Shown: positions 1 through 52,146 of the stretch, piece by piece
Layout: every line of letters starts with the position of its first letter
How positions within the stretch are numbered: the stretch's first letter is position 1
Source of the DNA: Candidatus Gastranaerophilales bacterium
Lineage (GTDB): Bacteria > Cyanobacteriota > Vampirovibrionia > Gastranaerophilales > Gastranaerophilaceae
Direction: 5' to 3'
NCBI GenBank assembly: GCA_900769645.1
Contig: CAAGHI010000063.1
Location: 83,379-147,378, forward strand
Length of the DNA: 64,000 nucleotides
Position numbers and translations under genes: made by a program
The notes under the pieces: generated by a model
What the model saw: only the letters and a program-made list of their open reading frames with translations
Databases searched by the model: none
What the model was told of the DNA's origin: nothing

Positions 1-49
1 ATTCAAAGATGCTGTAAACAAATAGTTCTTTGAACTTCAAAATCTTAGA

Positions 50-79
50 AAATGCACTTCGAAAGAGGTGCATTTTTTG
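50..79 (+). terminator. Rho-independent terminator hairpin (aaatgcac / gtgcattt, then a T-run) ending the upstream gene
   Basis: 8 bp inverted repeat followed by TTTTTT at 73-78. Confidence 0.5.
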
Positions 80-86
80 TTGTTGG

Positions 87-115
87 TTGAAATGTTTATG
101 AAAATATGGTAAAAT
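87..115 (+). promoter_or_regulatory. sigma70-like promoter for pilin-like locus 1: -35 TTGAAA (87-92), 17 nt spacer, -10 TAAAAT (110-115)
   Basis: Near-consensus hexamers at 17 nt spacing; the same architecture recurs at 9082-9110. Confidence 0.55.
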
Positions 116-146
116 GAGTATGTATATGAAAAAGAAAGGAAGAATT

Positions 147-227
147 ATGCAAGAAGATTTGAGAAGAGTGCTCGGGGGGGGGGCAAGCGTCACGGGGTAC
201 GTGGAAATTCCGCAGCTAGGAAGCTAG
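147..227 (+). other. Leader sORF (MQEDLRRVLGGGASVTGYVEIPQLGS) that reads through the G10 tract, out of frame with the pilin domain
   Basis: RBS AAAGGAAG 5-6 nt upstream of ATG 147; TAG at 225-227; frame 0, while the pilin is in frame 2. Confidence 0.4.
174..183 (+). repeat. Homopolymeric G10 tract, candidate slipped-strand phase-variation site
   Basis: 10 consecutive G in a low-GC genome; paralogous tracts at 9218 and 19805 sit at the same position relative to pilin-like genes. Confidence 0.8.
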
Positions 228-262
228 GAAGTGAAGCAGCTAAGCAAAATTGTTATTCTGAA

Positions 263-1036
263 ATGGAACAGCTGCTTTCAGTCGTCATTCCGAACGCTAG
301 CGAAGGAATCCAGCTTATTGATAAACAAAACAAATCACAAGGAGAAAGAAAGGATAACTTAACCGAAATGGTCTTTTCACTTAAACACGCCGCATTTACA
401 TTGGCTGAGGTTTTAATTACTCTCGGCATTATCGGTGTTGTTGCAGCTTTGACAATTCCTAATATTATTAAACACTATCAAAACAAAGTCACTGTTACCA
501 AACTTCAAAAAGCTTATTCAATTTTAAACCAAGCTTTTCGTCAATCTGAAAATGATAACGGGTCTTCTGAATTTTGGCAAGAAACCCCAGAAATTTCAGC
601 TCAGGACTATTTTGAAAAATACTGGAAACCTTACTTAAAAGAACCAAAACTTTGTCAAACATATCAAGAATGCGGTTATGTAAGCTGGAAACCATATATA
701 GCACTGAATGGTTCGTCTGTTGCTATGTCGCTAGATTCTGCAAGGGTAAAAATTAAAACAATTGATGATGTTTTTTATTTATTTACAGAGGCGACGACAA
801 ATTCTGAAGGAAAACTTGTTCCATTTAGAAATGTCTATATTGATATAAATGGTGCTAAAGCTCCAAATAAATTTGGGGAAGATGTTTTTATTTTTAATAG
901 AGTTATAGGAAAAGGTATAATGCCTGAATGCTATTATTGCTCATACAATTCATTGACCGCTAATTGTAATCGAAAATCTAATGGAGCATATTGCGCTGCT
1001 CGAATTATGGCTGATGGGTGGAAGATTAAGTATTAA
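263..1036 (+). CDS. Pilin-like protein with prepilin-type N-terminal cleavage/methylation domain (KHAA|FTLAEVLITLGIIGVVAALTIPN), paralog 1. Effective start uncertain: ATG 147 plus a +1 G, ATG 263, or ATG 368
   Basis: F+1, E+5 and a hydrophobic helix are typical of type IV pilin or pseudopilin; the Cys-rich C-terminal DING-K-PN motif is shared with 9198 and 19857. Confidence 0.6.
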   Translation: MEQLLSVVIPNASEGIQLIDKQNKSQGERKDNLTEMVFSLKHAAFTLAEVLITLGIIGVVAALTIPNIIKHYQNKVTVTKLQKAYSILNQAFRQSENDNGSSEFWQETPEISAQDYFEKYWKPYLKEPKLCQTYQECGYVSWKPYIALNGSSVAMSLDSARVKIKTIDDVFYLFTEATTNSEGKLVPFRNVYIDINGAKAPNKFGEDVFIFNRVIGKGIMPECYYCSYNSLTANCNRKSNGAYCAARIMADGWKIKY

Positions 1037-1060
1037 TAAAAAAGGTGGGATATTCCCACC

Positions 1061-1690
1061 TTATCTGATAAAGTTTGTTAGGATTTTGTCCTCTGTTTGA
1101 GGGTGGTCAATTCCTGATTTTTTGCCGGCTTCAATGCATTTTAAAAGCCATGCCATATTATTTCCGAGCACACGCATGATTTGTAGACCTTCCAAGTCTT
1201 TTCTGACATCGTCAGATGAATTTTGTCTGCCGTGCACCATACACCAATAATTTGAAGAAACAACCGGCATTTGATTTATAGTAAAATGTTTTGTGATAGC
1301 ATCAAGTGATGCAGTTGTTCCGGCACGTCTTGCAGAAACTATTGCAGCTGCCGGTTTGAATGCGAAATATTTGCTTCCGGCATAAAAGACTCTATCCATT
1401 ACGGACAAAAGTCTGCCTGCTGGGTGTGCATAATAAACAGGAGAACCAAAAACAAAGCCGTCTGCGGTTTTAGCTTTTTCGATAATTTCGTTTACGATAT
1501 CGTCTTTAAACACGCAACCTTCAATTTTTCTGCAAGCTCCGCAACCGCCGCAATCCTTGATTTCTTTATTTCCGATTTGGATAATTTCTGTTTCAATACC
1601 GTTTTTGTTAAGTGCACCTGCAACTTCTTCAAGTGCTGTAAATGTGCAACCCTGTTCATTTGAACTTCCGTTTACAAGTAAAACTTTCAT
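1061..1690 (-). CDS. Flavodoxin-like NAD(P)H-dependent FMN reductase / iron-sulfur flavoprotein
   Basis: MKVLLVNGSS flavodoxin fold N-terminus, CGGCGAC cysteine cluster, 209 aa. Confidence 0.55.
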   Translation of the reverse strand: MKVLLVNGSSNEQGCTFTALEEVAGALNKNGIETEIIQIGNKEIKDCGGCGACRKIEGCVFKDDIVNEIIEKAKTADGFVFGSPVYYAHPAGRLLSVMDRVFYAGSKYFAFKPAAAIVSARRAGTTASLDAITKHFTINQMPVVSSNYWCMVHGRQNSSDDVRKDLEGLQIMRVLGNNMAWLLKCIEAGKKSGIDHPQTEDKILTNFIR

Positions 1691-3415: not shown

Positions 3416-3486
3416 GTCATTCTGAAAGCTTAGAAAATTATCCTGAGTGTTTAGCGAGGGATAAATTTTCTTGCTATTCAGAATCT
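3416..3486. repeat. MITE-like hairpin element, family 1 module C (GTCATTCTGAAAGCTTAGAA...TTCTTGCTATTCAGAATCT)
   Basis: Imperfect terminal inverted repeats; copies at 30998-31067, 36232-36301 (reversed) and 39279-39349. Confidence 0.7.
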
Positions 3487-3500
3487 CTTTGTTCATTACT

Positions 3501-6775: not shown

Positions 6776-7645
6776 ATGAATATAAGTACATCTTCAGCAG
6801 CAACTGTCGCAGCAGCCAGTGCATCAGATGTAAGCTCAACTCAATCAAAATCAAAAACGAGCAGCAGTTCTAAAGCTGAAAAATCTTTTGAAGATGAGAT
6901 GAAATCTGCTTCCAAAACTGAAAAAACAGAAGAAACAAAAGATTCAAAAGAAACTGAAAAATCATCAAAAGATGATAAAAAGGTTTCTGAAAAAGAAAAA
7001 ACATCTCAAAAAGATTCAAATAAAGAAGCCAATAAACTTGCGGAAGAATTGAAAACTCCTGATGATATTGTTCCGGACGATGTTTATTCAGGCGGAATTA
7101 ATTTTACGGATTTTAAATATCATAATGAAAGTCAGTCTTTGTTGACTCAAAATATTCAAGATTTGTTGAATACAAAAAATTTGATGTCTACCGTAAATTC
7201 AGCTCAAACTGTTGATTATGATGCTATAAATATGTCGGATTCTGATGCAACATTCTTTGCGAATTTAGTCCAAAATACTGATATGTCTATGCAAAGTATT
7301 GCATCTCAAATTCAAACGCAAATGGCAGATGGTAACCAAAATATTCAACAAAATGTGAAAGTTTCGTCTGTTTTGATGGAAAAACTTTCTGAATCAATGA
7401 AAACAAATCAGCCGTTCAGAATAGATTTTGACAAAGATGTTTCTGTCATTATAAAAGTAAATAAAGACGGAAGTCTTGCTGCAAACTTTATCCCTGGGGA
7501 TAAGGCTGTAGAGCAGTATTTGCGTAATAATATTTCGTTTTTGAGACAGCGTTTTGATGAACAAAATTTGTCTTATAGCCAATTGAGTTATAGCAATTCT
7601 CGTCAACAGCAACAGCAAAGACGCCAAGGTAAGGAGAAACAGTAA
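6776..7645 (+). CDS. fliK: Flagellar hook-length control protein FliK-like
   Basis: S/K/E-rich N-terminus; C-terminal Flg_hook-like pattern IDFDKDVSVIIKVNKDGSLAANFIPGDKAVEQYLRNNISFLRQRF; synteny. Confidence 0.45.
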   Translation: MNISTSSAATVAAASASDVSSTQSKSKTSSSSKAEKSFEDEMKSASKTEKTEETKDSKETEKSSKDDKKVSEKEKTSQKDSNKEANKLAEELKTPDDIVPDDVYSGGINFTDFKYHNESQSLLTQNIQDLLNTKNLMSTVNSAQTVDYDAINMSDSDATFFANLVQNTDMSMQSIASQIQTQMADGNQNIQQNVKVSSVLMEKLSESMKTNQPFRIDFDKDVSVIIKVNKDGSLAANFIPGDKAVEQYLRNNISFLRQRFDEQNLSYSQLSYSNSRQQQQQRRQGKEKQ

Positions 7646-8481
7646 TGAATGATTCTTTTGTTACAGCACTGAATACCCAAAAATCGACCACAAACTGGAT
7701 TGATGTCATTGCTCACAACATGACAAACGTTTATACTCCAGGTTTCAGAGAACAACAGGTAAATTTTAAAACCTTCTTGGGTGGTGCGATTTCTGAGGAT
7801 TATGATAAAAAATTAGACCAAGGTAAATCAACCCCTGGTACTTCTAAAGAAAACTTGTTCTTAGAAGGTAAGGGCTTTTTCCTTGTGAAAGATGAAACAG
7901 GTAAGAGTATTTATACAAGGCTCGGTGAATTCAAGTTTGACAATGAAGGTGTTTATCGTGACAGAAGCGGAAACACAGTTCAAGGTTATATTTTGAACGA
8001 CAAGGGCGAAATCATGCAGGGTACAAAATCCGTAACGTCTGATTTGTACGAAGAAACTGCTATGAAGGGCGGTGCACTTGATATTCCGACAACAAATATA
8101 AAATTATGGATTGATCCGAATAATGGTAAATATCTAGGCAAATATGACGATTATGAGATTAAAAACGATGGTACAATCTATGGAAAAGCTGATAACGGAA
8201 AGCGTTCTGTGCCATTGTATCGTATAACTACAAGAAATTTTAATAACGCTGCGGCTCTTTATGAGTTCAAAGACGGTCAGTTTTTGGAAACAGAAGAGTC
8301 AGGCAAACCACTTATCGGTGTTGGTGAAATTCGTTCAGGGCTTTTAGAAATGTCAAACGCCGATTTTAAAGGAAATATTTCATACTACCAAATGGCAAAA
8401 TTGCAGATGGACGTTGCAAACAAACTGATTTCAACTCAAAAAGAACTTCTGCAAGAAACATTGAGATTGGTAGGAAGCTAG
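7645..8481 (+). CDS. Flagellar hook/rod protein of the FlgE/FlgF/FlgG family
   Basis: N-terminal AHNMTNVYTPGF rod motif, GKGFFLV...YTRLGEF, C-terminal LEMSNADFKGN...LISTQKELLQETLRL. Confidence 0.65.
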   Translation: MNDSFVTALNTQKSTTNWIDVIAHNMTNVYTPGFREQQVNFKTFLGGAISEDYDKKLDQGKSTPGTSKENLFLEGKGFFLVKDETGKSIYTRLGEFKFDNEGVYRDRSGNTVQGYILNDKGEIMQGTKSVTSDLYEETAMKGGALDIPTTNIKLWIDPNNGKYLGKYDDYEIKNDGTIYGKADNGKRSVPLYRITTRNFNNAAALYEFKDGQFLETEESGKPLIGVGEIRSGLLEMSNADFKGNISYYQMAKLQMDVANKLISTQKELLQETLRLVGS

Positions 8482-9142: not shown

Positions 9143-9250
9143 ATGAGAAGAGATTGTTTTATGCAAGAATTGCTAAAAATGAAAAGCCACCTAATTTGTG
9201 GGGGTAAAGTGCTCGTCGGGGGGGGGGCAATCGTCACGAGGAACATGTAA
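9143..9250 (+). other. Leader sORF (MRRDCFMQELLKMKSHLICGGKVLVGGGAIVTRNM) reading through the G10 tract, out of frame with the pilin domain
   Basis: RBS AAAAGGAG 8 nt before ATG 9143; TAA at 9248-9250. Confidence 0.4.
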
Positions 9251-9917
9251 TAGTAGGTCGGCATTTACCTTGGTCGAAGTTCTCATCACCCTCGGCATAA
9301 TCGGGGTTGTGGCAGCATTGACTCTCCCAGCACTTATTCAGGGTTACAAAAAGCAAGAAGCTAGCACTAGATTAAAAAAGTTTTATAGTACGATGACTCA
9401 AGCGATTGCGACTGCAGAAGCAGACTCAGGTACTAAGGCTTATGATTGGGACGCATTGTTGTGGCCTACTTATGATCCTGCAAATTCTTATAAGCTAACC
9501 TCAGTTTATTATAATAAGTATATTGCTCCATATATAAAGACTTTGAAGGTTGAAGATGGGGTTTATGACCCGAAAAATAATATTAATAGTAAAATGAAAA
9601 TCTATTTTTCAGATGGTTCTACTGCAGAGCTTAATGATGGCTTATGTGTAGATGTTTATTATGATATAAATGGACCTAAGGAACCAAATCAGACAGGAAA
9701 AGATATATTTTTGTTTTATATAGCAACAGCAAAGTCACATGCCAACAATCGTCAGCATGAACTTTATCAAAATCAGTCTTTTTCAGTTGGTTATCTTCCA
9801 CTTTATAACACTGAAACAAAAGCTCTAAATGCTTGTAAAACAAATGCTTCTTTTTGTTCAACATTGTTAATGTATCATAATTTTGAATTTCCCAAAAATT
9901 ATCCTTATAAGTTATGA
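9198..9917 (+). CDS. Pilin-like protein with prepilin-type N-terminal domain (RSA|FTLVEVLITLGIIGVVAALTLP), paralog 2. Only a GTG lies in frame upstream; ATG 9143 is fused by a -1 G
   Basis: No ATG in the pilin frame between the tract and the FTLVEV motif; shares the DINGPKEPN motif with paralog 1. Confidence 0.6.
   Translation: MGVKCSSGGGQSSRGTCNSRSAFTLVEVLITLGIIGVVAALTLPALIQGYKKQEASTRLKKFYSTMTQAIATAEADSGTKAYDWDALLWPTYDPANSYKLTSVYYNKYIAPYIKTLKVEDGVYDPKNNINSKMKIYFSDGSTAELNDGLCVDVYYDINGPKEPNQTGKDIFLFYIATAKSHANNRQHELYQNQSFSVGYLPLYNTETKALNACKTNASFCSTLLMYHNFEFPKNYPYKL
9218..9227 (+). repeat. Homopolymeric G10 tract, candidate phase-variation site
   Basis: Flanks conserved with locus 1: AGTGCTCG..G10..CAA(G/T)CGTCACG. 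Confidence 0.8.
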
Positions 9918-19779: not shown

Positions 19780-19833
19780 ATGAAAAAATGTAATGAAATG
19801 TTTCGGGGGGGGGGCTCGGAGATACTAGATTAG
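19780..19833 (+). other. Leader sORF (MKKCNEMFRGGGSEILD) reading through the G10 tract, out of frame with the pilin domain
   Basis: Purine-rich RBS GAAAGAGAG before ATG 19780; TAG at 19831-19833. Confidence 0.4.
19805..19814 (+). repeat. Homopolymeric G10 tract, candidate phase-variation site
   Basis: Third G10 in the window, again 43 nt upstream of an A|FTLAEV motif. Confidence 0.8.
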
Positions 19834-19856
19834 CTGCTAAGAAATCTGCGTTTACA

Positions 19857-20888
19857 TTGGCAGAGGTTCTTATCACCCTTGGTATAATCGGTGTTGTTGC
19901 GGCGATTACATTGCCTGTTTTGTTGAGCAATGTTGATCAAAAGGTTAAGGCGGAACGCGTTACGAATATTAAACAAAAACTCAGCAAGGTTACTGACAAA
20001 ATGGCTGTGCAGAGTGGACTTATTGGGTATGACAGCACAGATGCGTTTGTAAAAGAAATGCAAAGACACATGAAAATCGCCAAAGTTTGTGATAACGCCC
20101 ATCTCGACGATTGTTGGCCTTCAAAAGAGGTTACTTTGGACGATGAAGGTAAATCTTGGGAGATTTCAAAAACAAAGACTGCCAAGACTTTGAAGGTGGC
20201 AAAAGCTGACGGAGATGACTGGTCAGATACAGTCGGAATTGTGACGGGTGATGGAGCAGCAATGATTTTGAGCTACAACAAAGGCTGTACATTCGACATT
20301 GATAAAGAAGGTTTGAAATCCGGCGATAGTAAGGGTTCAAATTCGAATTCTTTAAACTGCATTGCAGGAGTTTTTGATTGGAATGGCGGTAAAAAGCCGA
20401 ATAAGTTAGCAAAACTTGAAGGAAATTCAAATGGCGATGTTTTGATATTCGGAAAAGCAAGCGGTTTGGGTTCAGAATGTTCAATTGAGTTAGGCGGGAA
20501 ATGCCTTACAGCTCCATTCACTCCAAGCCCATTAACAAAAGCTGAATGCGAAGCAGAAAAAATATCCGGTTGCTTCTATGAACGAGACTACTGGGCTGGA
20601 GCTGTAAAACAATGTGGTGGAGTATCTAAAATGCCAACTTATGATGATTTAGCAAAACTAGCAACAGAACTCTACAAAGGTAACCCAAAAGTTGGGAAGA
20701 ATACTATATTTAATAGTCGAATATTTCAATTAGACACCTCAAAAGCCGCATCTCTGGGCTTTACCGGTTCGCCTTTCTATGTTTGGTCGGGTGAATCGCA
20801 ATGGACCCGTGGCTTCTATAAAGATGGCACGGGTTGGGACAACTACCACGGCGGCAGTACGATTCAGGCGGTTTGTGTCGGTGAATAG
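19857..20888 (+). CDS. Pilin-like protein with prepilin-type N-terminal domain (KKSA|FTLAEVLITLGIIGVVAAITLP), paralog 3. ATG 19780 is fused by a +1 G
   Basis: The pilin frame is open from 19797 with no ATG/GTG/TTG before the FTL codons; Cys-rich C-terminus with an NGGKKPNK motif. Confidence 0.6.
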   Translation: MAEVLITLGIIGVVAAITLPVLLSNVDQKVKAERVTNIKQKLSKVTDKMAVQSGLIGYDSTDAFVKEMQRHMKIAKVCDNAHLDDCWPSKEVTLDDEGKSWEISKTKTAKTLKVAKADGDDWSDTVGIVTGDGAAMILSYNKGCTFDIDKEGLKSGDSKGSNSNSLNCIAGVFDWNGGKKPNKLAKLEGNSNGDVLIFGKASGLGSECSIELGGKCLTAPFTPSPLTKAECEAEKISGCFYERDYWAGAVKQCGGVSKMPTYDDLAKLATELYKGNPKVGKNTIFNSRIFQLDTSKAASLGFTGSPFYVWSGESQWTRGFYKDGTGWDNYHGGSTIQAVCVGE

Positions 20889-21107: not shown

Positions 21108-21698
21108 ATGAGAGAATTGTTAGAAAAAGATAGAAAAATTACAGTAGTGCCGGCAGATTTTAAATGTGCGAATAAAGGGACTATAATTGATGTTGAACCG
21201 AGATATTTTACTGTTGAGTTGGAATATGAACCGCAAGGTATGATGCGTCATAATTACTGTGAGTTTTATACGCAAACTTCTCATGGAACTTTGTATTTTG
21301 ATTCTTTCCCTGAAACAATTGAGGGGAAAAAGGTTAAGATTGCAACTCCGGCAAAGCATAAATTTCTTCAAAGACGTCAGTACACTCGTATCAAATACGT
21401 TTATGATTTGGATTTGAAATGCGGAGATGATGTTAAAAAGGTTACAACTCTTGATGTTTCTGCAGGTGGTATGAAATTCCGCACGAATGACAATATCAAC
21501 ATTGAAGCAGAGTATTCAATTTCTTTGCCGTTGTCTGAAAAACAAACTGTTGACTGCAAATTTAGCCCGATAAGAATTGAAAAAAATGAAAACGGTGGAT
21601 ATACCGTTTCTGGAAGATTTGAGTATCATAACAGTATTGACAAGATGACTCTTACTCAGTTTTGTACAAAAAGAAGTATCGAGATAAAAAATAAATAG
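21108..21698 (+). CDS. PilZ-domain c-di-GMP receptor (YcgR-like architecture)
   Basis: RxxxR (RRQYTR) and DxSxGG (DVSAGGM) motifs ~22 aa apart; N-terminal ~85 aa domain. Confidence 0.65.
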   Translation: MRELLEKDRKITVVPADFKCANKGTIIDVEPRYFTVELEYEPQGMMRHNYCEFYTQTSHGTLYFDSFPETIEGKKVKIATPAKHKFLQRRQYTRIKYVYDLDLKCGDDVKKVTTLDVSAGGMKFRTNDNINIEAEYSISLPLSEKQTVDCKFSPIRIEKNENGGYTVSGRFEYHNSIDKMTLTQFCTKRSIEIKNK

Positions 21699-30922: not shown

Positions 30923-31067
30923 CGATAATGAAGATAGACTCCAGATCGTAGTCCGGAGTGACAGGTGCTATGCATGTAGCCCTCTGCTGCAATTCTTGTC
31001 ATTCTGAAAGCTTAGAATATTAATGCGAGTTTCAACGAGCATATAATATTCTTGCTATTCAGAATCT
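30923..31067 (+). repeat. Composite family-1 repeat: module A (atagactccRgatcRtagtccggag), module B (ggtgctaYgcaYgtag…), module C (MITE-like hairpin)
   Basis: The same modules recur at 39061-39349 and, rearranged or reversed, at 36192-36420. Confidence 0.65.
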
Positions 31068-31097
31068 ATACAAATGGCTAGGTTCTTTCGCTGTTCC

Positions 31098-36191: not shown

Positions 36192-36420
36192 TTTTATTAG
36201 ACTCCGTCCGGAGTCTAATGTTATTGATAATAGATTCTGAATAGCAAGAATATTATATGCTCGTTTGAACTCGCATTAATATTCTAAGCTTTCAGAATGA
36301 CAACTAAAGTTGCTACTATTTATTGTTCCAAGGGGCTACGTGCCAGAACTGTTAAATTTTTACCAATCCCTCAATGGGCAACGGACTTCGTCCGAAAAAA
36401 AACCTCTATCTGAAAGATAG
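36192..36420 (-). repeat. Composite family-1 repeat in reverse orientation: palindromic module A', module C reversed (36232-36301), module B-like, then GGACTTCGTCC and CCTCTATCTGAAAGATAGAGG hairpins
   Basis: Module C is the exact reverse complement of the 30998-31067 copy. Confidence 0.65.
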
Positions 36421-39060: not shown

Positions 39061-39349
39061 ATAGTGAATATAGACTCCGGATCATAGTCCGGAGGTGCTA
39101 CGCACGTAGTCCTCTGTGACAACGTTGGTTCATGCTTCATACATTGGTGTAAAGCACTTACGCACGTAGTCCTCTGTGACAACATTGGTTCATACTTCAT
39201 ACATTGGTGTAAAGCTCTTATACGAACGTAGCCCTCAGTGATAAAGCAGCTAGGAAGTGAGGTAGCTAAGTGTGAGTCGTCATTCTGAAAGCTTAGAAAA
39301 TTATTTTGAACGATTAGTGAAAAATAAATTTTCTTGCTATTCAGAATCT
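39061..39349 (+). repeat. Composite family-1 repeat: module A, a 61-bp module-B unit tandemly repeated ~2.3 times (39098-39230), and module C (39279-39349)
   Basis: Two nearly identical consecutive 61-mers that differ at 3-4 positions. Confidence 0.7.
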
Positions 39350-39480
39350 ATTGCTGAATACGCTAGACTTTAGTGCATAATCCGAAGTGATGTTTACGTG
39401 GAAGTTGGGTTCGCTAAATAGTATCTACTTCAGATGCGTTGATTGGGGATACTTGCTCAATATCATTACATGTTTAAAAA

Positions 39481-43947: not shown

Positions 43948-44016
43948 GAAAATTTAGAGCAGCCGAATTTTTGTATAATATAAAAAAATTGTTAAAATTT
44001 ATTAAAGAGGGAAGAA

Positions 44017-44556
44017 ATGGGAACTGTAGAACCAATAAGAAATTTAGAAGATTTAAAAAAAGTCGAAAAAATATTATCTAAAAATCCGCGCGATTTATTA
44101 CTTTTTACAATTGGGACTAATTGTGGATTAAGAGTATCTGATATTTTAGCTCTTAATGTTGAAGATGTTAGGAATAAAAATTTTATTCAACTTATAGAAA
44201 AGAAAACAGGGAAATTTAAAAAATTTCCAATTAATTCAAAATTAAAGCCAATGTTTGAAGAATTTATAAAAAATCGAAAAGATGAAGAACCATTGTTTAC
44301 CACAAAGTTTCAAAATCGCCTAGGACGTGTAACTGCCTATTATACAATCAGAGAAGCTTGTAAAATTGCGAATTTAGATGAAAAATTTGGTACACATACA
44401 ATGAGAAAAACGTTTGGGTATCATCACTATAAAAAGTTCAAAGATGTAGCTCTTCTTCAAAAAATATTTAATCATTCAAGCCCAATGGTAACCCTACGAT
44501 ATATCGGGATTGAACAAGAACAAATAAACGAAAGCTATACTAATTTTATCCTCTAA
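44017..44556 (+). CDS. Small tyrosine site-specific recombinase, catalytic domain only (FimB/FimE-like size)
   Basis: GLRVSD (Arg I), HTMRKTF (HxxR), YHHY, LRYIG (Tyr nucleophile); 179 aa. Confidence 0.7.
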   Translation: MGTVEPIRNLEDLKKVEKILSKNPRDLLLFTIGTNCGLRVSDILALNVEDVRNKNFIQLIEKKTGKFKKFPINSKLKPMFEEFIKNRKDEEPLFTTKFQNRLGRVTAYYTIREACKIANLDEKFGTHTMRKTFGYHHYKKFKDVALLQKIFNHSSPMVTLRYIGIEQEQINESYTNFIL

Positions 44557-44570
44557 TTCCAAATTTTTTT

Positions 44571-44780
44571 ATTACATTATTACAAATTTGTAGAGAAACC
44601 ATATTTATAACTATAACCCAATTATAGTACAAATATTTTATTTTTAAAACTATATTAAAATTTGTAAATACATACATTTTCTTTGATGGCAAGCGTTGCC
44701 GCTACTCTCTTCTATACAAATTTGTAAAATTGTATAGAAAAAGTTCAGTTAGTGGATAAATCGGAGAGTAGAAATAATCA
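44571..44780. promoter_or_regulatory. Palindrome-rich spacer between the tandem recombinase genes: AAATTTGTA motif three times, nested inverted repeats CTACTCTC…GAGAGTAG and TCTATACAA…TTGTATAGA
   Basis: Palindrome TACAAATTTGTA at 44581-44592; direct copies at 44659 and 44718; 8 and 9 bp inverted repeats at 44702-44770. Confidence 0.4.
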
Positions 44781-45311
44781 GTGAACGTAATTTCGCCTAT
44801 AAAAAGTATAGAAGAAATCAATTTGATAAAGGATTTGTATAAGAAAAAGCAGCAAACCCCTGAACTTGCGATGTTTACGTTGGCTATAAATACCGGTATA
44901 GATTTGTCTGAACTTTTAAATTTAAAAGTTGAAGATGTAAAAAATAAATTTTATTTGCAAATTGAACCGGAAAAATCAATTCCTTTAGACGAGGACGTAA
45001 GAAAATTAATAGCCAATCTTTCAACAGGTAAGAAAAATTCTGATTTATTGTTTAGTAATAAAAAAGGTAAAAAGGTTGATCGAACAACCGCTTTTTATTC
45101 TTTTAAAAACATTTGTTCCGAATTAGGGTTGAGTGAAAAATATTCTGTTGCATCTTGGCGCAAAACATTTGCGTATCATTACTACAAAAAATATAAGGAT
45201 TTATCGTTTCTGATGTGGTTGTTTAATCAACGTTCAACAGAGCAAGCTTTGAATTTTATTGAAGAAAAAGAAGATATGAATTTGAGATTTAAAGAAGGGG
45301 TGGCACTATAA
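44781..45311 (+). CDS. Second small tyrosine-recombinase-like protein, a degenerate paralog
   Basis: ASWRKTFAYHYY aligns with HTMRKTFGYHHY but the box II His is replaced; GTG start 14 nt after GGAG. Confidence 0.5.
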   Translation: MNVISPIKSIEEINLIKDLYKKKQQTPELAMFTLAINTGIDLSELLNLKVEDVKNKFYLQIEPEKSIPLDEDVRKLIANLSTGKKNSDLLFSNKKGKKVDRTTAFYSFKNICSELGLSEKYSVASWRKTFAYHYYKKYKDLSFLMWLFNQRSTEQALNFIEEKEDMNLRFKEGVAL

Positions 45312-47597
45312 TTGGGTACATATTTTAGAAATTCTTATAATAATATTCCAAGGATAAAGTTTTCAATAATAGTTCCTATATATAATGTTGAAAAGTATTT
45401 GCCTCAATGTCTTGATAGCATTCTCTCTCAAACGTTAAAAGATTTTGAAGTTATTTGTGTAGATGACGGCTCTACGGATAATTCTTTATTAATTTTGCAA
45501 AGTTTTGCAGAAAAAGACTTTCGTGTAAATATTATTTCGCAAAGAAATCAAGGGGTTGGGATTGCGAGAAATAATGCCTTAAAAGAAGTTAAGGGGAAAT
45601 ATTTGCTATTTGTAGATCCTGATGATTGGATAGATACAAATGCTTTAGAATTATTGTGGAATAAAGTAGAAGCTACGGAAGCGTCTGTGCTTCAATTTGA
45701 TTATGCAATATTTAAAGATGGTTCGTTAAAACAAAAAAATATATATTCTTATAAGATTGCCAAAAAATTTGGATATGATTTAAAAGAAAAAGGGTATTTT
45801 AACTGGGAAGTATTTAAGAAACGGCTGTTTCGCCAACTAGGGCTTGCAGTTTGGAATCGAGTTTATTTAACAGATTTTGTAAAAGAAAATAATATTAAGT
45901 TTGCCTCTAGTAGAATTGGCGAAGACCATATATTTACAATAAAAGCTCTAATTTTAGCTCCTAAAATTTTTTATTTGAATAAATGCCTATATCATTACAG
46001 AAAACGAAAAGCTTCTGCGACCAATATGGCTTCAGATGCAAATTTTTCTGCATTTGAAAATGTACAATTAGTTGAAAATTTTTTAAAGGAAAAAGAATTA
46101 TTTGAATGTTTAAAAGAAGAGTTTAAGGAATATAAGATAGAAAATCTTGCACACCATTATTGTTGCGTTCCACAAGATAAAATTCAAATTTATATTGATT
46201 TATGCAAAAAAATTTTGTCGCAAGATGAGTTTGCACAGTTCCAAAAGCTGGCATGTAATGTTGAATTATCGACAAAAGAAAAAATCTTTTCATTAAAAAA
46301 CAGTAAATTAAACGGCATTAAATATAAAGTTCTTACGATTTTAGGCTATTCAATAAAATTGGGTAATAATCCGAGTAAATGCGATTATAGTTCGAATAAA
46401 AATATTAAGAACAGAAGAAAAAATATTTCATTTATTGGTTTGCCGATTTATAGTATTGAAGATTTTGGAAAAGTTCGAATTCAAAAGTTCTTTGGTGGAA
46501 TTTTCCTTTCAGAAAAGTATCGTTCCGACTCAAAAGAATGTAAGATTTTTAAATTGTTGTATATTCCTTTTCTCAAAAGAGTAGTTGAAAATGATGTTTG
46601 CAAGTACTACAGTATGGGAATTTTACTTTGTCAAAAACACTTGGCGCAGAGATTTTTTGAAAAATATTTAAAGAATGTTAAATCCAATTATGATGCAGTG
46701 TACATTTTACATGCAAATAGTGGAGAAATCTTTTTATTTTTCGCATATTTATTAAAATTACATTTAAAAAAGAATAAAATCAAAGATCCTTTATTTGTCA
46801 TTACAAAAAAATATCATATTGATATTTTGAAGATGTATTACCCAGAAGCAAACTACTTATTTATAGCGAATTTGAAATTAAAGACACAGAGTAATGTATG
46901 GAAAACTCCGGATTACAGGTGTTATATCCTGTTTCCCGGTGCTTATTTTAACAAAATTGAAAAGGATATAAAAAATTATGAAATAGGAAAAGTTCACTAT
47001 TTTAATAGAATGCTTGAAGATCTAAATATTTCAAAAGAAGAGTTGCAAGAAATTCAAACGGTGCATTTGAAAAATCCGGTTGAAAAAATCCAAACTATTA
47101 CTAATAAGACAAAGTTAAATGTTGATAAGTTTGTCATTGTCGCTCCTGAAGCTATAACTTGTGAAGGATTGTCAAAAGCATTTTGGGGGAAATTGGTTGG
47201 AAGATTAAAAGATAAAAATTTCGATATTTTTCTAAACATAACAAATCCTAAGAACATAATTGAAAACACAAAATATTGTGAGTTAAGTTTTGAAGAACTG
47301 TATATTTTAGGAGAAAAAGCTCAGGGTATTATTTCGCTAAGGAGTGGGCTTTCTGAATTTTTATTGCCGACAAAGGTTCCTAATATTGCAATTTATTCAA
47401 AATTTAAAAACAGAGGGGAAGAAAATACATTTTCTGTAGAAAAAGGTATTGAAAGCTTTTCAATGCGCAAACTTCCATTTGTAAATAAAGAAAAAATCTA
47501 CGAGATTAATGCAGAGCTTTATAAAAAGGAAGATGAGCTTGTGGACAAGGTGATGGATATATTGGAAAAAGCGATAGTATTTAAGGAGGAAAAATAA
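45312..47597 (+). CDS. Family 2 glycosyltransferase with a ~500 aa C-terminal extension
   Basis: FSIIVPIYNVEKYL…VICVDDGSTDNS GT2 signature; TTG start abutting the upstream stop. Confidence 0.65.
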   Translation: MGTYFRNSYNNIPRIKFSIIVPIYNVEKYLPQCLDSILSQTLKDFEVICVDDGSTDNSLLILQSFAEKDFRVNIISQRNQGVGIARNNALKEVKGKYLLFVDPDDWIDTNALELLWNKVEATEASVLQFDYAIFKDGSLKQKNIYSYKIAKKFGYDLKEKGYFNWEVFKKRLFRQLGLAVWNRVYLTDFVKENNIKFASSRIGEDHIFTIKALILAPKIFYLNKCLYHYRKRKASATNMASDANFSAFENVQLVENFLKEKELFECLKEEFKEYKIENLAHHYCCVPQDKIQIYIDLCKKILSQDEFAQFQKLACNVELSTKEKIFSLKNSKLNGIKYKVLTILGYSIKLGNNPSKCDYSSNKNIKNRRKNISFIGLPIYSIEDFGKVRIQKFFGGIFLSEKYRSDSKECKIFKLLYIPFLKRVVENDVCKYYSMGILLCQKHLAQRFFEKYLKNVKSNYDAVYILHANSGEIFLFFAYLLKLHLKKNKIKDPLFVITKKYHIDILKMYYPEANYLFIANLKLKTQSNVWKTPDYRCYILFPGAYFNKIEKDIKNYEIGKVHYFNRMLEDLNISKEELQEIQTVHLKNPVEKIQTITNKTKLNVDKFVIVAPEAITCEGLSKAFWGKLVGRLKDKNFDIFLNITNPKNIIENTKYCELSFEELYILGEKAQGIISLRSGLSEFLLPTKVPNIAIYSKFKNRGEENTFSVEKGIESFSMRKLPFVNKEKIYEINAELYKKEDELVDKVMDILEKAIVFKEEK

Positions 47598-47600
47598 AAA

Positions 47601-49100
47601 ATGAAAATTATCATTCAAGCTGGTGGTAAAGGAACAAGGTTAGAACACTTAACATATAATAGACCAAAATGTTTGGTGCCTGTACATAACAGACCGATGA
47701 TATTTCATCTTTTTAACAAGTATAAAGATGCTGAGTTTGTTGTAATTGGGGATTATAAATTTGATGTTTTAGAAAAATATCTTGCGACATTTGCAAAAGA
47801 TGTAAACTATAAAATCGTTCGAGCAACCGGAACCGGAAATATATGCGGAATAAAACAAGCACTTGAATTCATTTCAGATAACGAAAAATTTATGTTAATT
47901 TGGTCTGATTTGATTTTATCAGAAGAATTTAAGCCTGAAGAATTACCAACTGGCAATTATGTTGGAATTTTAGAAGGTCAAACTTGTTCTTGGAGCTTTA
48001 TTGACGGGAAATTGGATAAAGTCGCTTCTGACAAATTTGGTGTAGCAGGTTGTTTTGTATTTGAAAACAAATCTGCATTCAAAGATATACCATTATCAGG
48101 TTCTTTTACAACTTGGCTTAAAGAAAGTGGAATTCCTTTAAAGGCAATGAAAATGCCTGCTTGTCCGGAAGTCGGAACTTTGGAAGCAATTGATAACTTG
48201 AAGGATACTCAAAATCGTTGTCGCCCTTATAACAAAATGGAATTTACTGATGGCAAGGTTATAAAAACTGGTTTGACAGAAGAAGGTAAAAAACTGATTG
48301 ATAGAGAGGTCGTTTGGTATAAAAAAATGGTGGAATACGGATTTACATCAATTCCAAAAATCTATTCTTATGACCCTCTTACAATGGAAAAGATTGACGG
48401 TACAAATATTTTTCAGGCAAATTTAACTGATGAACAAAAAGCTAAAATTACTGATAATTTGATAGATTCTGTAAATAAAATGCACAGTTTTGAAACAAAA
48501 CTTTCTGATAAAGAGGACTTGATTAAAGAATACTATACCAAAACAATTGACAGATTGAATAGTATTAAATCTGCAATTCCGTTTGCTGATAGTGAGTATA
48601 TTACAATTAATGGAAAAACTTGCAAAAATCCGATTGTGTTTCAAAAACAATTTAAAGATGCTGTTGAAGAAAAATTACTTGATACAGTATTTTGTCCAAT
48701 CCATGGTGATTGTACTTTGACTAATACAATGGTTGATAAAAATAATAATATTTATTTTATTGATGCAAGAGGATATTTTGGTAAACAAGTTGTTTTAGGC
48801 GATATTCGTTACGATTGGGCAAAATTATATTACTCAATGTGTGGCAATTTCGACAGATTTAATGTTAAAGACTTTAGATTAAAAATTTCAGACAATGATG
48901 TCCTCTTTGAAATCAAATCTAATGGCTGGGAAGATTTAACCGAAAAAGTTTTGGCAAATATGAAAAATTGCAAAGTTAGAGATATTCAATTTATACACGC
49001 TATTATTTGGCTTTCTCTAGCAAGCCACTGTTGGGAAGATTACGACTCAATGTGCTTGGCATTTTATAACGGTATGTATTTAGTAAGTGATTTTATTTAA
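47601..49100 (+). CDS. Bifunctional sugar-phosphate nucleotidyltransferase (N-terminal) / APH-ChoK-family kinase (C-terminal)
   Basis: MKIIIQAGGKGTRL…NRPKCLVPV; HGDCTLTNTMVD…IYFIDARGYFG. Confidence 0.6.
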   Translation: MKIIIQAGGKGTRLEHLTYNRPKCLVPVHNRPMIFHLFNKYKDAEFVVIGDYKFDVLEKYLATFAKDVNYKIVRATGTGNICGIKQALEFISDNEKFMLIWSDLILSEEFKPEELPTGNYVGILEGQTCSWSFIDGKLDKVASDKFGVAGCFVFENKSAFKDIPLSGSFTTWLKESGIPLKAMKMPACPEVGTLEAIDNLKDTQNRCRPYNKMEFTDGKVIKTGLTEEGKKLIDREVVWYKKMVEYGFTSIPKIYSYDPLTMEKIDGTNIFQANLTDEQKAKITDNLIDSVNKMHSFETKLSDKEDLIKEYYTKTIDRLNSIKSAIPFADSEYITINGKTCKNPIVFQKQFKDAVEEKLLDTVFCPIHGDCTLTNTMVDKNNNIYFIDARGYFGKQVVLGDIRYDWAKLYYSMCGNFDRFNVKDFRLKISDNDVLFEIKSNGWEDLTEKVLANMKNCKVRDIQFIHAIIWLSLASHCWEDYDSMCLAFYNGMYLVSDFI

Positions 49101-49109
49101 GAGGTGCTT

Positions 49110-49496
49110 ATGCTTAAAGAAAAACAACAATTGAGAATATCTCCGCTTGGACATAGTTGGATTTTAGATTTTGACGGTACGCTTGTTGAACATAATGGCT
49201 ACAAGACAGGTGATGACAAGTTTTTACCAGGGGTAAAAGAGTTTTTGCAATCTATTCCTAAAGACGATTTTGTTTTGATTATGACCGCTAGAGAAAAAGA
49301 TGCTAAAGAAAAAACGGTCAAATTTTTGAATGAAAACGGGATTAGATTTAATGAAATTCTTTTTGAAATGCCAATGGGTGAAAGAATTTTGATAAATGAT
49401 GACAAACCGTCTGGGTTGAGATGTGCTTATGCAATAACTCCAACTAGAAATCAAGGGTTAGAAAATTTAGATGTAATTGTAGATGAAAACTTATAA
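49110..49496 (+). CDS. HAD-superfamily phosphatase
   Basis: ILDFDGTL motif I; ~129 aa; RBS AAGAGGTG. Confidence 0.5.
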   Translation: MLKEKQQLRISPLGHSWILDFDGTLVEHNGYKTGDDKFLPGVKEFLQSIPKDDFVLIMTAREKDAKEKTVKFLNENGIRFNEILFEMPMGERILINDDKPSGLRCAYAITPTRNQGLENLDVIVDENL

Positions 49497-49505
49497 GGAG
49501 CAATA

Positions 49506-50393
49506 ATGTTAATTATTAAAACAATGATTCATGAAACAATTTGGGGTGGAGATAGATTAACTTCATATTCAAATACTAATAGCAAAAAGATTGGACACTT
49601 ATATTCACTTATTTCAAATGGGGAACTGGAAAGTGAAATCTTGAATGGCGAATATAAAGGACAACTGTTCAGAAAATATTTTGACGATAACAAAGCAAAA
49701 TTTGGATTAGCAAAATATAAAGAATTACCATTTTTGTTGGCTTTGGTTGATGCTACAGATGATTTGAGTTTGCAAGTACACCCTGATGATGAAGTAGCGA
49801 AAGAACTTGAAAATGCAGATTTTGGTAAAAATGAATCTTGGTATTTTTTAGAAGTTCCAAAAAGTGGGAAAATTTATGATGGTTGCAAAGCCAAAAATTC
49901 TCAAGAATTGCGAGAAAAAGTTGCACAAGGCAAATACGATGATGTTATTGACTATTTGAATGTTGAAGTTGGAAGCTATGTTTATATAGAAGCTGGTACA
50001 ATGCACGCAATGTCAGCAGGAAGCCTTGTTTATGAGATTGAAGAAAATTGTAATGCAACTTATAGAGTTTATGATTTCGATAGAATTGACAAAGATGGCA
50101 AAAAACGCCCTCTTCAAACAGAAGCGGCTTTAAAATCAATTCATGTAGATAAAAAATCTGTTGCTCAAAAATATGATAGAGAAAAGGTTGAAAGATTATA
50201 TGCAACAAATCTTTTCACATATAAAAAAGAGTATACAAATAAATCAAATACAATCGAATGTTTAACAGTTTTGAATGGCAAATCTGAAGTGGAAGGTTTT
50301 ACTGTTCAAAAAGGAACAACCATTGTTTTGGAACCGAATGAAACAGTTAAGTTAAATGAGTCCGACTTTATTGTCGCAAGAGCGTTGGTGTAA
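49506..50393 (+). CDS. Type I phosphomannose-isomerase-family cupin isomerase
   Basis: ETIWGG…SLQVHPDD…GKNESWYF…HAMSAGS. Confidence 0.6.
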   Translation: MLIIKTMIHETIWGGDRLTSYSNTNSKKIGHLYSLISNGELESEILNGEYKGQLFRKYFDDNKAKFGLAKYKELPFLLALVDATDDLSLQVHPDDEVAKELENADFGKNESWYFLEVPKSGKIYDGCKAKNSQELREKVAQGKYDDVIDYLNVEVGSYVYIEAGTMHAMSAGSLVYEIEENCNATYRVYDFDRIDKDGKKRPLQTEAALKSIHVDKKSVAQKYDREKVERLYATNLFTYKKEYTNKSNTIECLTVLNGKSEVEGFTVQKGTTIVLEPNETVKLNESDFIVARALV

Positions 50394-50405
50394 GGAGGTA
50401 GTGAG

Positions 50406-51068
50406 TTGAGCATAGAATTATCAGCTTCAATGATGTGTGCAAATTATGCCTGCTTAAGAGATGAGGTGAAAAATCTTGAAGATGCAGGGATTGATATTTT
50501 TCATATAGATATAATGGACGGAAGTTTTGTTGATAACTTTGGAATGGGTTATCAGGACATGGCTTTTATCAAAAACAATACGAACAAACTTGTTGAGGCA
50601 CATTTGATGGTAAGAAAGCCATACAACTATTTGGATATTTTGTTTAACTTGGGCATTGATATTATTTATATTCACCCAGAAGTTGATCCTGACCCTGCGA
50701 CAACTATTGAAAAAATTCATCAACACGGAGCAATTGCTGGTATTGCGATTAATCCGGGGACTGCAATTTCTACAATAGAAGAATTGCTGAATACAGTGGA
50801 TAGAGTTCTTGTTTTGGGGGTGAACCCAGGACATGCCGGACGAAAATATCAACCCTATGTGGATAGAAAAATAGAACGTTTGTTGGAACTAAAAAGAATT
50901 TTTAATTTCGAAATAGAACTTGATGGAGCGGTGACACCAGAACGAATTGCTCAGTGGCAACCTCGTGGAGTGAAAAGTTTTGTCCTTGGTACAGCTACAT
51001 TGTTTAAAAAAGATAATACTTATAGAGATATAATTGATAAACTAAACAAAGTGTTGGTAACAAAATAA
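50406..51068 (+). CDS. Ribulose-phosphate 3-epimerase-family ketose-phosphate epimerase
   Basis: HIDIMDGSFVDNFGMG, HLMV, GVNPGHAG; TTG start 7 nt after AAGGAGG. Confidence 0.6.
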   Translation: MSIELSASMMCANYACLRDEVKNLEDAGIDIFHIDIMDGSFVDNFGMGYQDMAFIKNNTNKLVEAHLMVRKPYNYLDILFNLGIDIIYIHPEVDPDPATTIEKIHQHGAIAGIAINPGTAISTIEELLNTVDRVLVLGVNPGHAGRKYQPYVDRKIERLLELKRIFNFEIELDGAVTPERIAQWQPRGVKSFVLGTATLFKKDNTYRDIIDKLNKVLVTK

Positions 51069-51078
51069 GGAGTTATGT

Positions 51079-52146
51079 GTGGATAGAATAATTGATAAGT
51101 CTAACTTAAATAATATGGGCTTTATAAATGCAAGGATATTAGTATTGTTTATTAAATTTCTAATTTTCTTAATAAATATAATTGTTGTAGTTAAGCCGGT
51201 TAGGATAAAAATAAGAAAAAAGTTATTTAATTTAATTAATAAAATATTTTTAAAAGAGGTTAAAAAAGAAATAAAAAATATTAGAAGCAAATATTCTGAC
51301 TATTATATCTTTTCGTTGTTCTTTCCATTGGGAGATCTTGGGATCGCTTGCTCTTTAATGAAAATATTTAAAAATAAAAATAATAAAAAAATATTGGTAA
51401 TTGTAAATGATAAAAACAGGGCTAGAGTTGCAAGCTTGTTTCCATCTATAGATAAAATAATGATTGTACATCCTTTTGTATATGATTACATTTATAATAA
51501 TCCTGAATTTAAAATTAAAAAAGGTCGAATTTATGAAATAAATCATTGGAAATTTTATGATGCACCAAAGTATAAATCAAAGAATTTTTTAGAGCTTTAT
51601 GCTCATATGCTAGGATTAAAAGAGTGGGAAAATTTTGAATCTCCTGTTTTTTCTGAAATGTTAGTTGATAATGTCATGAAAATTATTGAAAAAAAACATA
51701 TAGATATAAGAAAAACTGTGTTTATTGCAAAAGATTCAAATTCATTTAATTGTAAATTAATAGATGAAAATTTTTGGATAAATAAAGCTAAATATTATAA
51801 AAATATGGGGTATGAGGTTGTATTTAATTCGAAGAAAAAGTCTTTTCAAGGATATAAAACAATATTTTTACCAATGCATGAACAATTGTATTTTTGTTCT
51901 TTATGTAAAAAGGTTGTTGCAATTCGAAGTGGTTTCAATGATTTGTTAGGATTAATGAAATTGGACAATCTAGAGATATATTACCCAAAAACTATGTTTT
52001 TTGGTTCAATAAAAAAAATAGATCAACTTTGTGAGTTTAAGCGAGCATTTTTTGATGATGAAAGTAAAAATTTTAATGAAAATATGTATAGAATAACATC
52101 TTTAAATATGTTTAACTTAAAACATGTAGAGGAATACATATTATAA
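51079..52146 (+). CDS. Hypothetical protein, very AT-rich, possibly a glycosyltransferase
   Basis: N-terminal TM; Lys/Ile/Asn-rich codon usage unlike the housekeeping genes. Confidence 0.4.
   Translation: MDRIIDKSNLNNMGFINARILVLFIKFLIFLINIIVVVKPVRIKIRKKLFNLINKIFLKEVKKEIKNIRSKYSDYYIFSLFFPLGDLGIACSLMKIFKNKNNKKILVIVNDKNRARVASLFPSIDKIMIVHPFVYDYIYNNPEFKIKKGRIYEINHWKFYDAPKYKSKNFLELYAHMLGLKEWENFESPVFSEMLVDNVMKIIEKKHIDIRKTVFIAKDSNSFNCKLIDENFWINKAKYYKNMGYEVVFNSKKKSFQGYKTIFLPMHEQLYFCSLCKKVVAIRSGFNDLLGLMKLDNLEIYYPKTMFFGSIKKIDQLCEFKRAFFDDESKNFNENMYRITSLNMFNLKHVEEYIL

Follow-up and report, generated by a model that had tools for sequence, protein, structure and literature searches.

A 64,000-nucleotide stretch of Candidatus Gastranaerophilales DNA (assembly GCA_900769645.1, contig CAAGHI010000063.1, positions 83,379 to 147,378 of the forward strand; hereafter the window) contains, within its first 1.1 kb, a compact monocistronic unit, locus 1, which carries a run of ten G residues (G10) between its start codon and the coding sequence of a pilin-like protein. 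Locus 1 is most probably a simple-sequence contingency locus, in which the poly-G tract in the 5′ coding region acts as a heritable and reversible frame switch. Comparison with orthologous and paralogous loci supports this reading of a phase switch, which in the window would be in the OFF position as assembled.

Anatomy of locus 1 and the proposed switch

The first-pass annotation of this DNA had proposed a promoter, a ribosome-binding site and a start codon at position 147 (ATG147) whose reading frame crosses the G10 tract and ends shortly after it. All of these were recovered (Table 1), the limits of the tract and of the terminating codon being exact. The promoter is nearly identical in the orthologous loci L212–L222 (L081, L091 and L212–L223 are loci from further assemblies, and P-numbers denote database proteins). 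An ATG at 126 (MKKKGRIM...) shares the frame of ATG147 and is the codon at which gene callers start in the in-frame relatives. The tract lies 27 nucleotides (nt), or nine codons, past ATG147 and 211 nt before F+1, the first residue of the predicted mature protein; a homopolymer of at least eight residues between start codon and functional domain is one of the marks of a contingency locus. The pilin frame runs open through the tract to 1036 and has no ATG, GTG or TTG before 263, which bears out the earlier claim that it lacks an upstream start; its opening is at 113, not at 119 as then given. The two internal ATG codons that had been named as possible weak starts, at 263 and 368, both exist. 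As had also been predicted, one additional G (G11) or the loss of two (G8) joins ATG147 to the pilin frame, and the computed products have 296 and 295 amino acids (aa), respectively. In this ON state the linker between the tract and the predicted cleavage site forms the rest of an 82-aa prepilin leader.

The switch would operate as follows. Transcription would start ∼6–8 nt past the −10 box (110–115), and ribosomes would load at the Shine–Dalgarno (SD) sequence and ATG147 and reach the G tract after nine codons. With G10, they would terminate at the TAG codon after 26 codons and leave the mature pilin part untranslated, and with G9 or G12 translation would end after 23 codons. Only lengths of 3n+2 (G8, G11) would connect ATG147 to the pilin, in frames of 295 and 296 codons. 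We infer that, within one population, slipped-strand mispairing during replication shifts the tract by ±1, at a rate and with a reversibility that would allow switching. The 82-aa leader (81 aa with G8) would then be removed at A↓FTLAEV (the arrow marks the predicted cleavage site) by a prepilin peptidase, and the DUF6613 pilin would be built into a type IV pilus or a pseudopilus-like fibre. Since the two remaining pilin-like genes of the window, and ∼46% of the family, are preceded by the same module, subsets of the pilin repertoire would be independently switchable.

The prepilin motif of locus 1, KHAA↓FTLAEVLITLGIIGVVAA, has the form of a class III signal (A↓FTLAEVLITLGIIGVVAALTIP, with F+1 and E+5 followed by ∼20 hydrophobic residues). 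TIGR02532 scored 19.3 bits on locus 1 (cut-off 16.3) and was above its cut-off for the products of all three pilin-like loci of the window. PF07963 scored 21.0 on locus 1 (cut-off 21.2) and was above the cut-off for loci 2 and 3, and DUF6613 was matched by the products of loci 1 and 2. An AlphaFold model of the locus 1 protein translated from ATG368 (pLDDT 92.4), built on a 61-sequence alignment, shows an N-terminal helix of 53 residues with a beta-sheet head, which corresponds to the 'lollipop' fold of a long N-terminal alpha-helix on an antiparallel beta-sheet head. A Foldseek search of this model against the PDB gave no significant match. Motif matches and model together identify the protein as a subunit of the pilin or pseudopilin-like type whose head is divergent.

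Table 1. Coordinates of the elements of locus 1 and of the two other pilin-like loci in the window
Feature	Position	Strand	Remarks
Terminator-like hairpin	46–79		Closes the preceding gene (in syntenic relatives, an HU gene)
Promoter, sigma-70 type, TTGAAA-N17-TAAAAT	87–115	+	TG-extended −10; 10/12 consensus matches
Shine–Dalgarno sequence AAAGGAAG	135–142	+	Serves ATG147 (147–149)
Leader mini open reading frame as assembled (OFF), MQEDLRRVLGGGASVTGYVEIPQLGS	147–227	+	Stop TAG 225–227
G10 homopolymer, putative frame switch	174–183	+	G11 or G8 ON; G9, G10 and G12 OFF
Linker, pilin frame, KRHGVRGNS...SLKHAA	184–394	+	Stops in the three frames: 0, 9 and 2
Diverged copy of palindromic intergenic repeat	212–345	+	In frame in the leader; right boundary approximate
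Internal ATG, 9-aa leader MVFSLKHAA	368–370	+	Possible tract-independent start
Mature pilin-like protein, F+1, FTLAEVLITLGIIGVVAA...	395–1036	+	Methylation motif, then DUF6613 head domain; stop TAA 1034–1036
Terminator-like hairpin, bidirectional	1042–1062		Common to locus 1 and the convergent FMN reductase gene
Pilin-like locus 2, paralogous module	9143–9917	+	SD-ATG 9143, G10 9218–9227, ATG-frame stop 9248; needs G9 or G12
Pilin-like locus 3	19780–20888	+	ATG 19780, G10 19805–19814, ATG-frame stop 19831; needs G11 or G8

Tract-length alleles, association with the pilin family and coding constraint

The orthologous locus was identified by synteny (an HU gene, the pilin gene, and FMN reductase and radical SAM genes, both on the − strand), and its promoter, SD sequence and leader up to the tract are the same as in locus 1. 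Natural products of both states of the toggle are found at this locus. L212 and L214 carry G11, and their fusion MKKKGRIMQEDLRRVLGGGGNREEVRVAPLPSCLAAKRVA↓FTLAEV... corresponds to the 253-aa proteins P0143 and P0275, with an in-frame leader that reads MKKKGRIMQEDLRRVLGGGG...↓FTLAEV. L213 carries G10, and its 100 nt upstream and 110 nt downstream of the tract are identical to those of L214. A second allele, again with identical flanks, is found with G12 (L215), G10 (L216) and G9 (L217). G11 alone is in frame at this locus; in the G9, G10 and G12 versions, which are out of frame, gene callers use a TTG inside the motif, giving a 211-aa product (MAEVLITL...). These alleles support the earlier proposal that the gene in the window is phase-OFF as assembled. 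Length polymorphism between otherwise identical alleles, another mark of a contingency locus, was also found at locus 3, where L091 has G9 and the window and eight assemblies have G10 between identical flanks. P0122 contains the leader predicted for a G11 version of locus 3, MKKCNEMFRGGGLGDTRLAAKKSA, which is also found in the ON orthologs P0003–P0013 and, in substituted form, in many orthologs. At the same syntenic locus as locus 1, L223 (520–760) has a different in-frame leader, MKKDCIMQELLKMKSHLIGGWNGTLPELATR..., and no homopolymer, and from its sequence this allele looks like a locked-ON version; the same type of leader heads locus 2 of the window, there with a G10 tract.

OFF alleles are systematically mis-annotated by gene callers (P0018, P0127, P0133, P0258, P0272, P0287; P0141, P0284). 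The mis-annotations take the form of TTG-started 'MAEVLITL...' truncations or of N-terminal extensions without an SD sequence that begin at upstream starts in the pilin frame.

Within the window (GC content ∼0.35), runs of at least eight G residues occur at three sites, all of them G10 and on the + strand, and they account for nine overlapping 8-mer matches, compared with an expectation of 0.16 based on shuffles. A six-frame motif scan located prepilin motifs at exactly three places (F+1 at 395, 9264 and 19851), and one tract lies upstream of each; the tract of locus 1 is more than a chance occurrence. The three loci have a common layout: an ATG, a few codons and the G10 tract follow one another, the ATG frame soon meets a stop, and the pilin frame can be read back through the tract without one. 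As assembled, none of the three pilin-like genes is in frame, and the repair that they need is +1 (or −2) at locus 1, −1 (or +2) at locus 2 and +1 (or −2) at locus 3. An SD-like sequence precedes the ATG at loci 1 and 2, which also share TCG10CAAnCGTCACGnGGnAC around the tract and have promoters with the same −35 and −10 hexamers at N17 spacing. The pilin frame of locus 3 has no start codon before F19851. For locus 2, a look-up of the exact product (the open reading frame (ORF) from GTG9198) found no record.

Relatives of the three window pilins were sought in one genome per species, which gave at least 563; the best 80 were taken (L001–L080), almost all from gut metagenome-assembled genomes (MAGs) of Candidatus Gastranaerophilales/Melainabacteria. 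Family-wide counts refer to the window and these 80 loci, 339 kb together, and a tract was counted as associated when a run of at least eight G or C residues lay ≤360 nt upstream of a pilin motif. By this measure, 36 of the 39 tracts are associated with pilin motifs, a density of 1.20/kb compared with 0.0097/kb elsewhere (124-fold), and two of the three exceptional tracts lie ∼400–450 nt upstream of a pilin motif. Of the 78 pilin sites whose upstream sequence was long enough, 36 (∼46%) have such a run. Over-representation of tracts together with a link to a class of surface genes is, again, typical of contingency loci. The tracts of the 36 loci have lengths of 10 (24 loci), 11 (10 loci), 9 (one locus) and 8 (one locus), and across the family an ATG preceded by an SD sequence usually lies 20–31 nt before the tract.

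The stretch between tract and motif gives independent information on how these genes are read. In 30 of the 36 loci, with tract-to-motif distances of 20–345 nt, the pilin frame contains no stop in 1249 codons, compared with 130 and 86 stops (216 together) in the other two frames, for which the naive probability is ∼1e-49. A no-stop constraint therefore acts on the pilin frame over this stretch, as expected if translation begins at the upstream ATG and passes through the tract. In-frame fusions with GGG or PPP in their first 25 residues make up 85 of 247 database proteins of the family, and the residues predicted for the ON form of locus 1, GGGGKRHGVRG, recur in the ON proteins of relatives (GGGKRHEVRV, GGGGNREEVRV).

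Counter-evidence and alternative explanations

Several observations weigh against a frame switch at locus 1. Among 29 tract-bearing pilin loci, the consensus is in frame at only three and OFF at 26, so that fewer are ON than the one third that unbiased slippage would give (binomial P = 0.0045); the out-of-frame loci need +1 in 18 cases and −1 in eight. In six of the 36 loci, stops part the SD–ATG–tract mini-ORF from a pilin gene that has its own strong SD sequence and the leader MKKRNA↓F (for example in L010, 1290–1500, and L052, 1140–1450). The exact long-linker allele of the window has G10 in six of six assemblies (the window and L218–L222), in a look-up by the OFF product that is biased against ON variants. 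No ON version of this allele was found among the members listed for its protein cluster, and no full-length match of ≥90% identity that could represent its ON form came up. The gain of ATG368 in the window allele could bypass the switch. Two further points concern the leader. The −1 residue of the predicted cleavage site is Ala in 72 and Gly in 15 of the 87 family motifs; locus 1 (392–394) has Ala in KHAA↓F in place of the Gly typical of pilins, and Ala at this position is unusual for substrates of prepilin peptidase. The leader of locus 1 has 82 aa when read from ATG147 at G11 (9 aa from ATG368), which is far longer than the leaders of characterised type IV pilins, and for the leaders called in the family the median length is 44 aa and the longest has 218 aa.

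The bias towards OFF may reflect selection for OFF, a mutational optimum at 10–11 residues or slippage-based expression. A speculative and rather doubtful extension would be that Gastranaerophilales keep a large pilin repertoire deliberately out of frame (26 of 29 loci in species-representative genomes), that it is expressed combinatorially, with a few genes ON in each cell, or at a constant low level by RNA polymerase slippage on the G/C run of 10–11 residues, and that the long cleavable leaders serve as a tolerant landing pad for in-frame palindromic repeats; such an arrangement would amount to programmed recoding of a pilin repertoire.

The leader of the window allele does contain such a repeat. 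Compared with short-linker orthologs, this allele has ∼150 extra nt between tract and motif, and the palindromic element listed in Table 1 is absent from the short-linker orthologs L212–L217. It is similar to 39246–39352 and related to 3416–3489, 30996–31069 and 36230–36303 (− strand) of the window. The family resembles repetitive extragenic palindromic (REP) sequences or miniature inverted-repeat transposable elements (MITE), and its copies are palindromic and intergenic (GTCATTCTGAAAGCTTAGAA...TTCTTGCTATTCAGAATC, often after AGCTAGGAAGTGA). Directly upstream of the copy at 39246, a 60-nt direct repeat is present in two tandem copies that are 95% identical (39099–39218). Leader modules of this kind are translated in other family members (..LGSEAAK.., ..SRHSERLAKESSLLQYK.., ..ETDHASMPLGIFASK..), ..LGSEAAK.. 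being found in P0147 and P0151. In L081, a 1582-bp gut metagenome contig, positions 1–427 were compared with window positions 212–1366; the pilin gene is identical from 212 onward, and the 3′ end of an alanine racemase gene stands in place of the promoter–G10 module. Since the two parts are joined just where the repeat element begins, L081 is read as a rearrangement or a mis-assembly at the repeat. An invertible promoter or shufflon, suggested by the different upstream region of L081, was rejected, as no inverted repeats flank the promoter module.

The best-surviving alternative, which is nevertheless unlikely, is that the pilin is made from ATG368 (MVFSLKHAA↓F) independently of the tract, and that the promoter, the mini-ORF and G10 are a 5′ leader or a relic. 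Translation from this codon, with AAAGGA 13 nt upstream, would yield a canonical 9-aa prepilin leader, and in L010, L011, L040, L032 and L052 a strong SD sequence and a short leader do lie downstream of a separate tract mini-ORF. L081 keeps the same gene without the promoter–tract module. The codon is ACG (Thr) in the sister allele L218–L222, and the NLTETV module has Thr elsewhere, so ATG368 is derived in the window allele, as if selected to bypass the switch. However, this closest allele, with ACG at the position, retains the promoter, the tract and the open frame, and the orthologs are translated from the upstream ATG. The spacing of the SD sequence at ATG368 is poor, no promoter is predicted on the + strand between 116 and 367, and the 61 codons upstream of ATG368 are free of stops in the pilin frame, whereas the other frames have nine and two. 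The first-pass annotation had offered ATG368 as a fallback start; the codon is real, and its role is weakened by the ACG of the sister allele and by the poor SD sequence. Judged from these comparisons, ATG368 is not the conserved start of the locus 1 gene. It and the switch are not mutually exclusive routes, and ATG368 may add basal expression, giving the window strain some tract-independent product with a canonical 9-aa leader.

Programmed recoding, in which slippage of RNA polymerase or ribosomal frameshifting on G10/G11 would give a steady minority of in-frame product, as would suit low-abundance minor pilins, is improbable. It would account for the preponderance of out-of-frame loci, including all three in the window, and for tract lengths that cluster tightly at 10 and 11, and homopolymers of nine or more residues can promote transcriptional slippage. 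Against recoding, in-frame DNA alleles exist that differ from OFF alleles by tract length alone, as in classical phase variation, and a single direction of slippage would not repair both the loci that need +1 and those that need −1; moreover, slippage is best documented for A/T runs.

An error of sequencing or assembly, with a true tract that is in frame and invariant, is very improbable. Short-read and nanopore platforms are prone to errors in long G runs, and the three loci of the window all look broken, but G10 was obtained in six independent assemblies of the window allele and in nine of locus 3, alleles of 9, 10, 11 and 12 G residues at the orthologous locus were assembled within one study series, and a systematic error would not produce the 124-fold enrichment of tracts before pilin genes. 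Systematic miscalling by one base was dropped in particular because the three window loci need opposite corrections (+1, −1 and +1). It is equally hard to believe that locus 1 is a decaying pseudogene frameshifted by a chance G run, even though it is out of frame as assembled and has a repeat inserted in its leader: the pilin domain is intact, 95–100% conserved across samples and confidently modelled (pLDDT 92), the frame stays open across the inserted element, and the same architecture recurs at 30 or more loci with zero stops.

Other searches concerned the RNA and the wider distribution of the tract. A scan of the whole window with Rfam at gathering thresholds returned two tRNAs only, with no riboswitch or leader RNA at 87–400, and a structured-RNA reading of the linker finds no support, as 184–400 folds no better than shuffles (z = 0.14). 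A metagenome scan with the pattern AGTGCTCN{6,18}CAAKCGTCACG, which was judged too unspecific, gave at least 120 stretches, mostly environmental by contig name, and no G run was present in the gap among the matches listed.

Genomic surroundings and comparison with known systems

The three pilin-like genes lie dispersed between housekeeping genes, and a Pfam scan of 13 window ORFs gave no match to a family of the pilus machinery. The scanned neighbours are flagellar, PilZ, GGDEF and housekeeping genes. A gene for a PilZ-domain protein (21108–21698) lies directly downstream of pilin locus 3, an arrangement kept in other assemblies, FliK- and FlgE-like flagellar genes (6776–8481) lie upstream of locus 2, and a CHASE2-GGDEF diguanylate cyclase is encoded at 55070–56848. 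These neighbours hint at a control of surface appendages by cyclic di-GMP (c-di-GMP). A possible surface-polysaccharide island is the region of lower GC content at 44000–52000 (0.285–0.30 compared with ∼0.35), in which genes for a family-2 glycosyltransferase and for a nucleotidyl transferase are located.

The Gastranaerophilales (Melainabacteria/Vampirovibrionia), relatives of Cyanobacteria that live in the gut, are uncultured, and their biology is known from genomes only. Searches of the full-text literature for Gastranaerophilales or Melainabacteria together with pilin phase variation found no paper, and the single match for Melainabacteria and 'phase-variable' concerns invertons of restriction-modification systems. 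The mechanism proposed here is classical; it is new for Gastranaerophilales in the literature searched. A real switch would mean that a contingency-locus system like those of mucosal pathogens operates in these commensals, almost wholly on one pilin-like family, and would point to strong fluctuating selection on the fibres, for example by host immunoglobulin A (IgA), by phages whose receptors are pili or by changing needs for attachment. Pilin content and expression state would then be wrong in MAG catalogues, because gene callers would systematically mis-annotate such genes. Tract lengths would be readable from existing metagenomes and would offer a culture-free readout of surface state within and between hosts.

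Known phase-variable systems resemble locus 1 in different respects. Neisseria pilC is the closest precedent, and the Campylobacter and Helicobacter phasomes are the closest genomic analogues. In pilC of Neisseria gonorrhoeae and N. meningitidis, a poly-G run in the region encoding the signal peptide undergoes RecA-independent on/off frameshift switching (PMC5354566, citing Jonsson et al. 1991). As in pilC, the run of G residues at locus 1 lies just past the start codon, inside the code for the N-terminal targeting peptide, here presumably cleaved, of a pilus protein, and the proposed switch follows the same logic. PilC, however, is a Sec-dependent tip adhesin, whereas here the tract lies in class III prepilin leaders of the pilin-like subunits themselves, and the module is found on dozens of paralogues in a non-pathogenic, uncultured sister group of Cyanobacteria; the two systems have no sequence homology.

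Campylobacter jejuni and Helicobacter pylori are AT-rich, and in their genomes G/C runs of 8–12 residues are rare outside genes for surface structures, with isolate-variable lengths that set the frame; the C. jejuni gene Cj1295 is an example of such a poly-G/C contingency locus (PMC3068675). The window is similar to these 'phasomes' in being AT-rich and in having its tracts confined to surface genes. The tracts of C. jejuni and H. pylori are found in genes for glycosyltransferases, restriction-modification and flagellar modification, anywhere in the ORF, whereas 36 of 39 Gastranaerophilales tracts are on one protein family and usually lie 20–31 nt past the start codon. Phase-variable genes for fimbrial subunits are known from Bordetella pertussis (the poly-C tracts of fim2/fim3) and Haemophilus (the TA repeats of hif), in which the repeat acts through promoter spacing. 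Locus 1 is likewise a repeat-controlled gene for a pilus subunit, but unlike in both of these systems its tract lies past the promoter and the SD sequence and would act on the reading frame.

The predicted protein and its leader can be compared in the same way. Like type IVb and other prepilins with long leaders, the locus 1 product has a class III signal with F+1, E+5 and a hydrophobic alpha-1 helix. Known prepilin leaders have ∼5–30 aa and end in Gly, in contrast to the family described here, with its median of 44 aa, its maximum of 218, the 82 aa of the ON form in the window and Ala at −1 in 72 of 87 motifs. For the repeat inserted in the leader, the parallel is with the palindromic elements of Rickettsia, which are otherwise intergenic and are found in frame inside coding genes. 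Here, too, an intergenic palindromic repeat lies within an ORF and the frame is kept; unlike in Rickettsia, the insertions are confined to a presumably cleaved leader, which would explain why in-frame insertions are tolerated.

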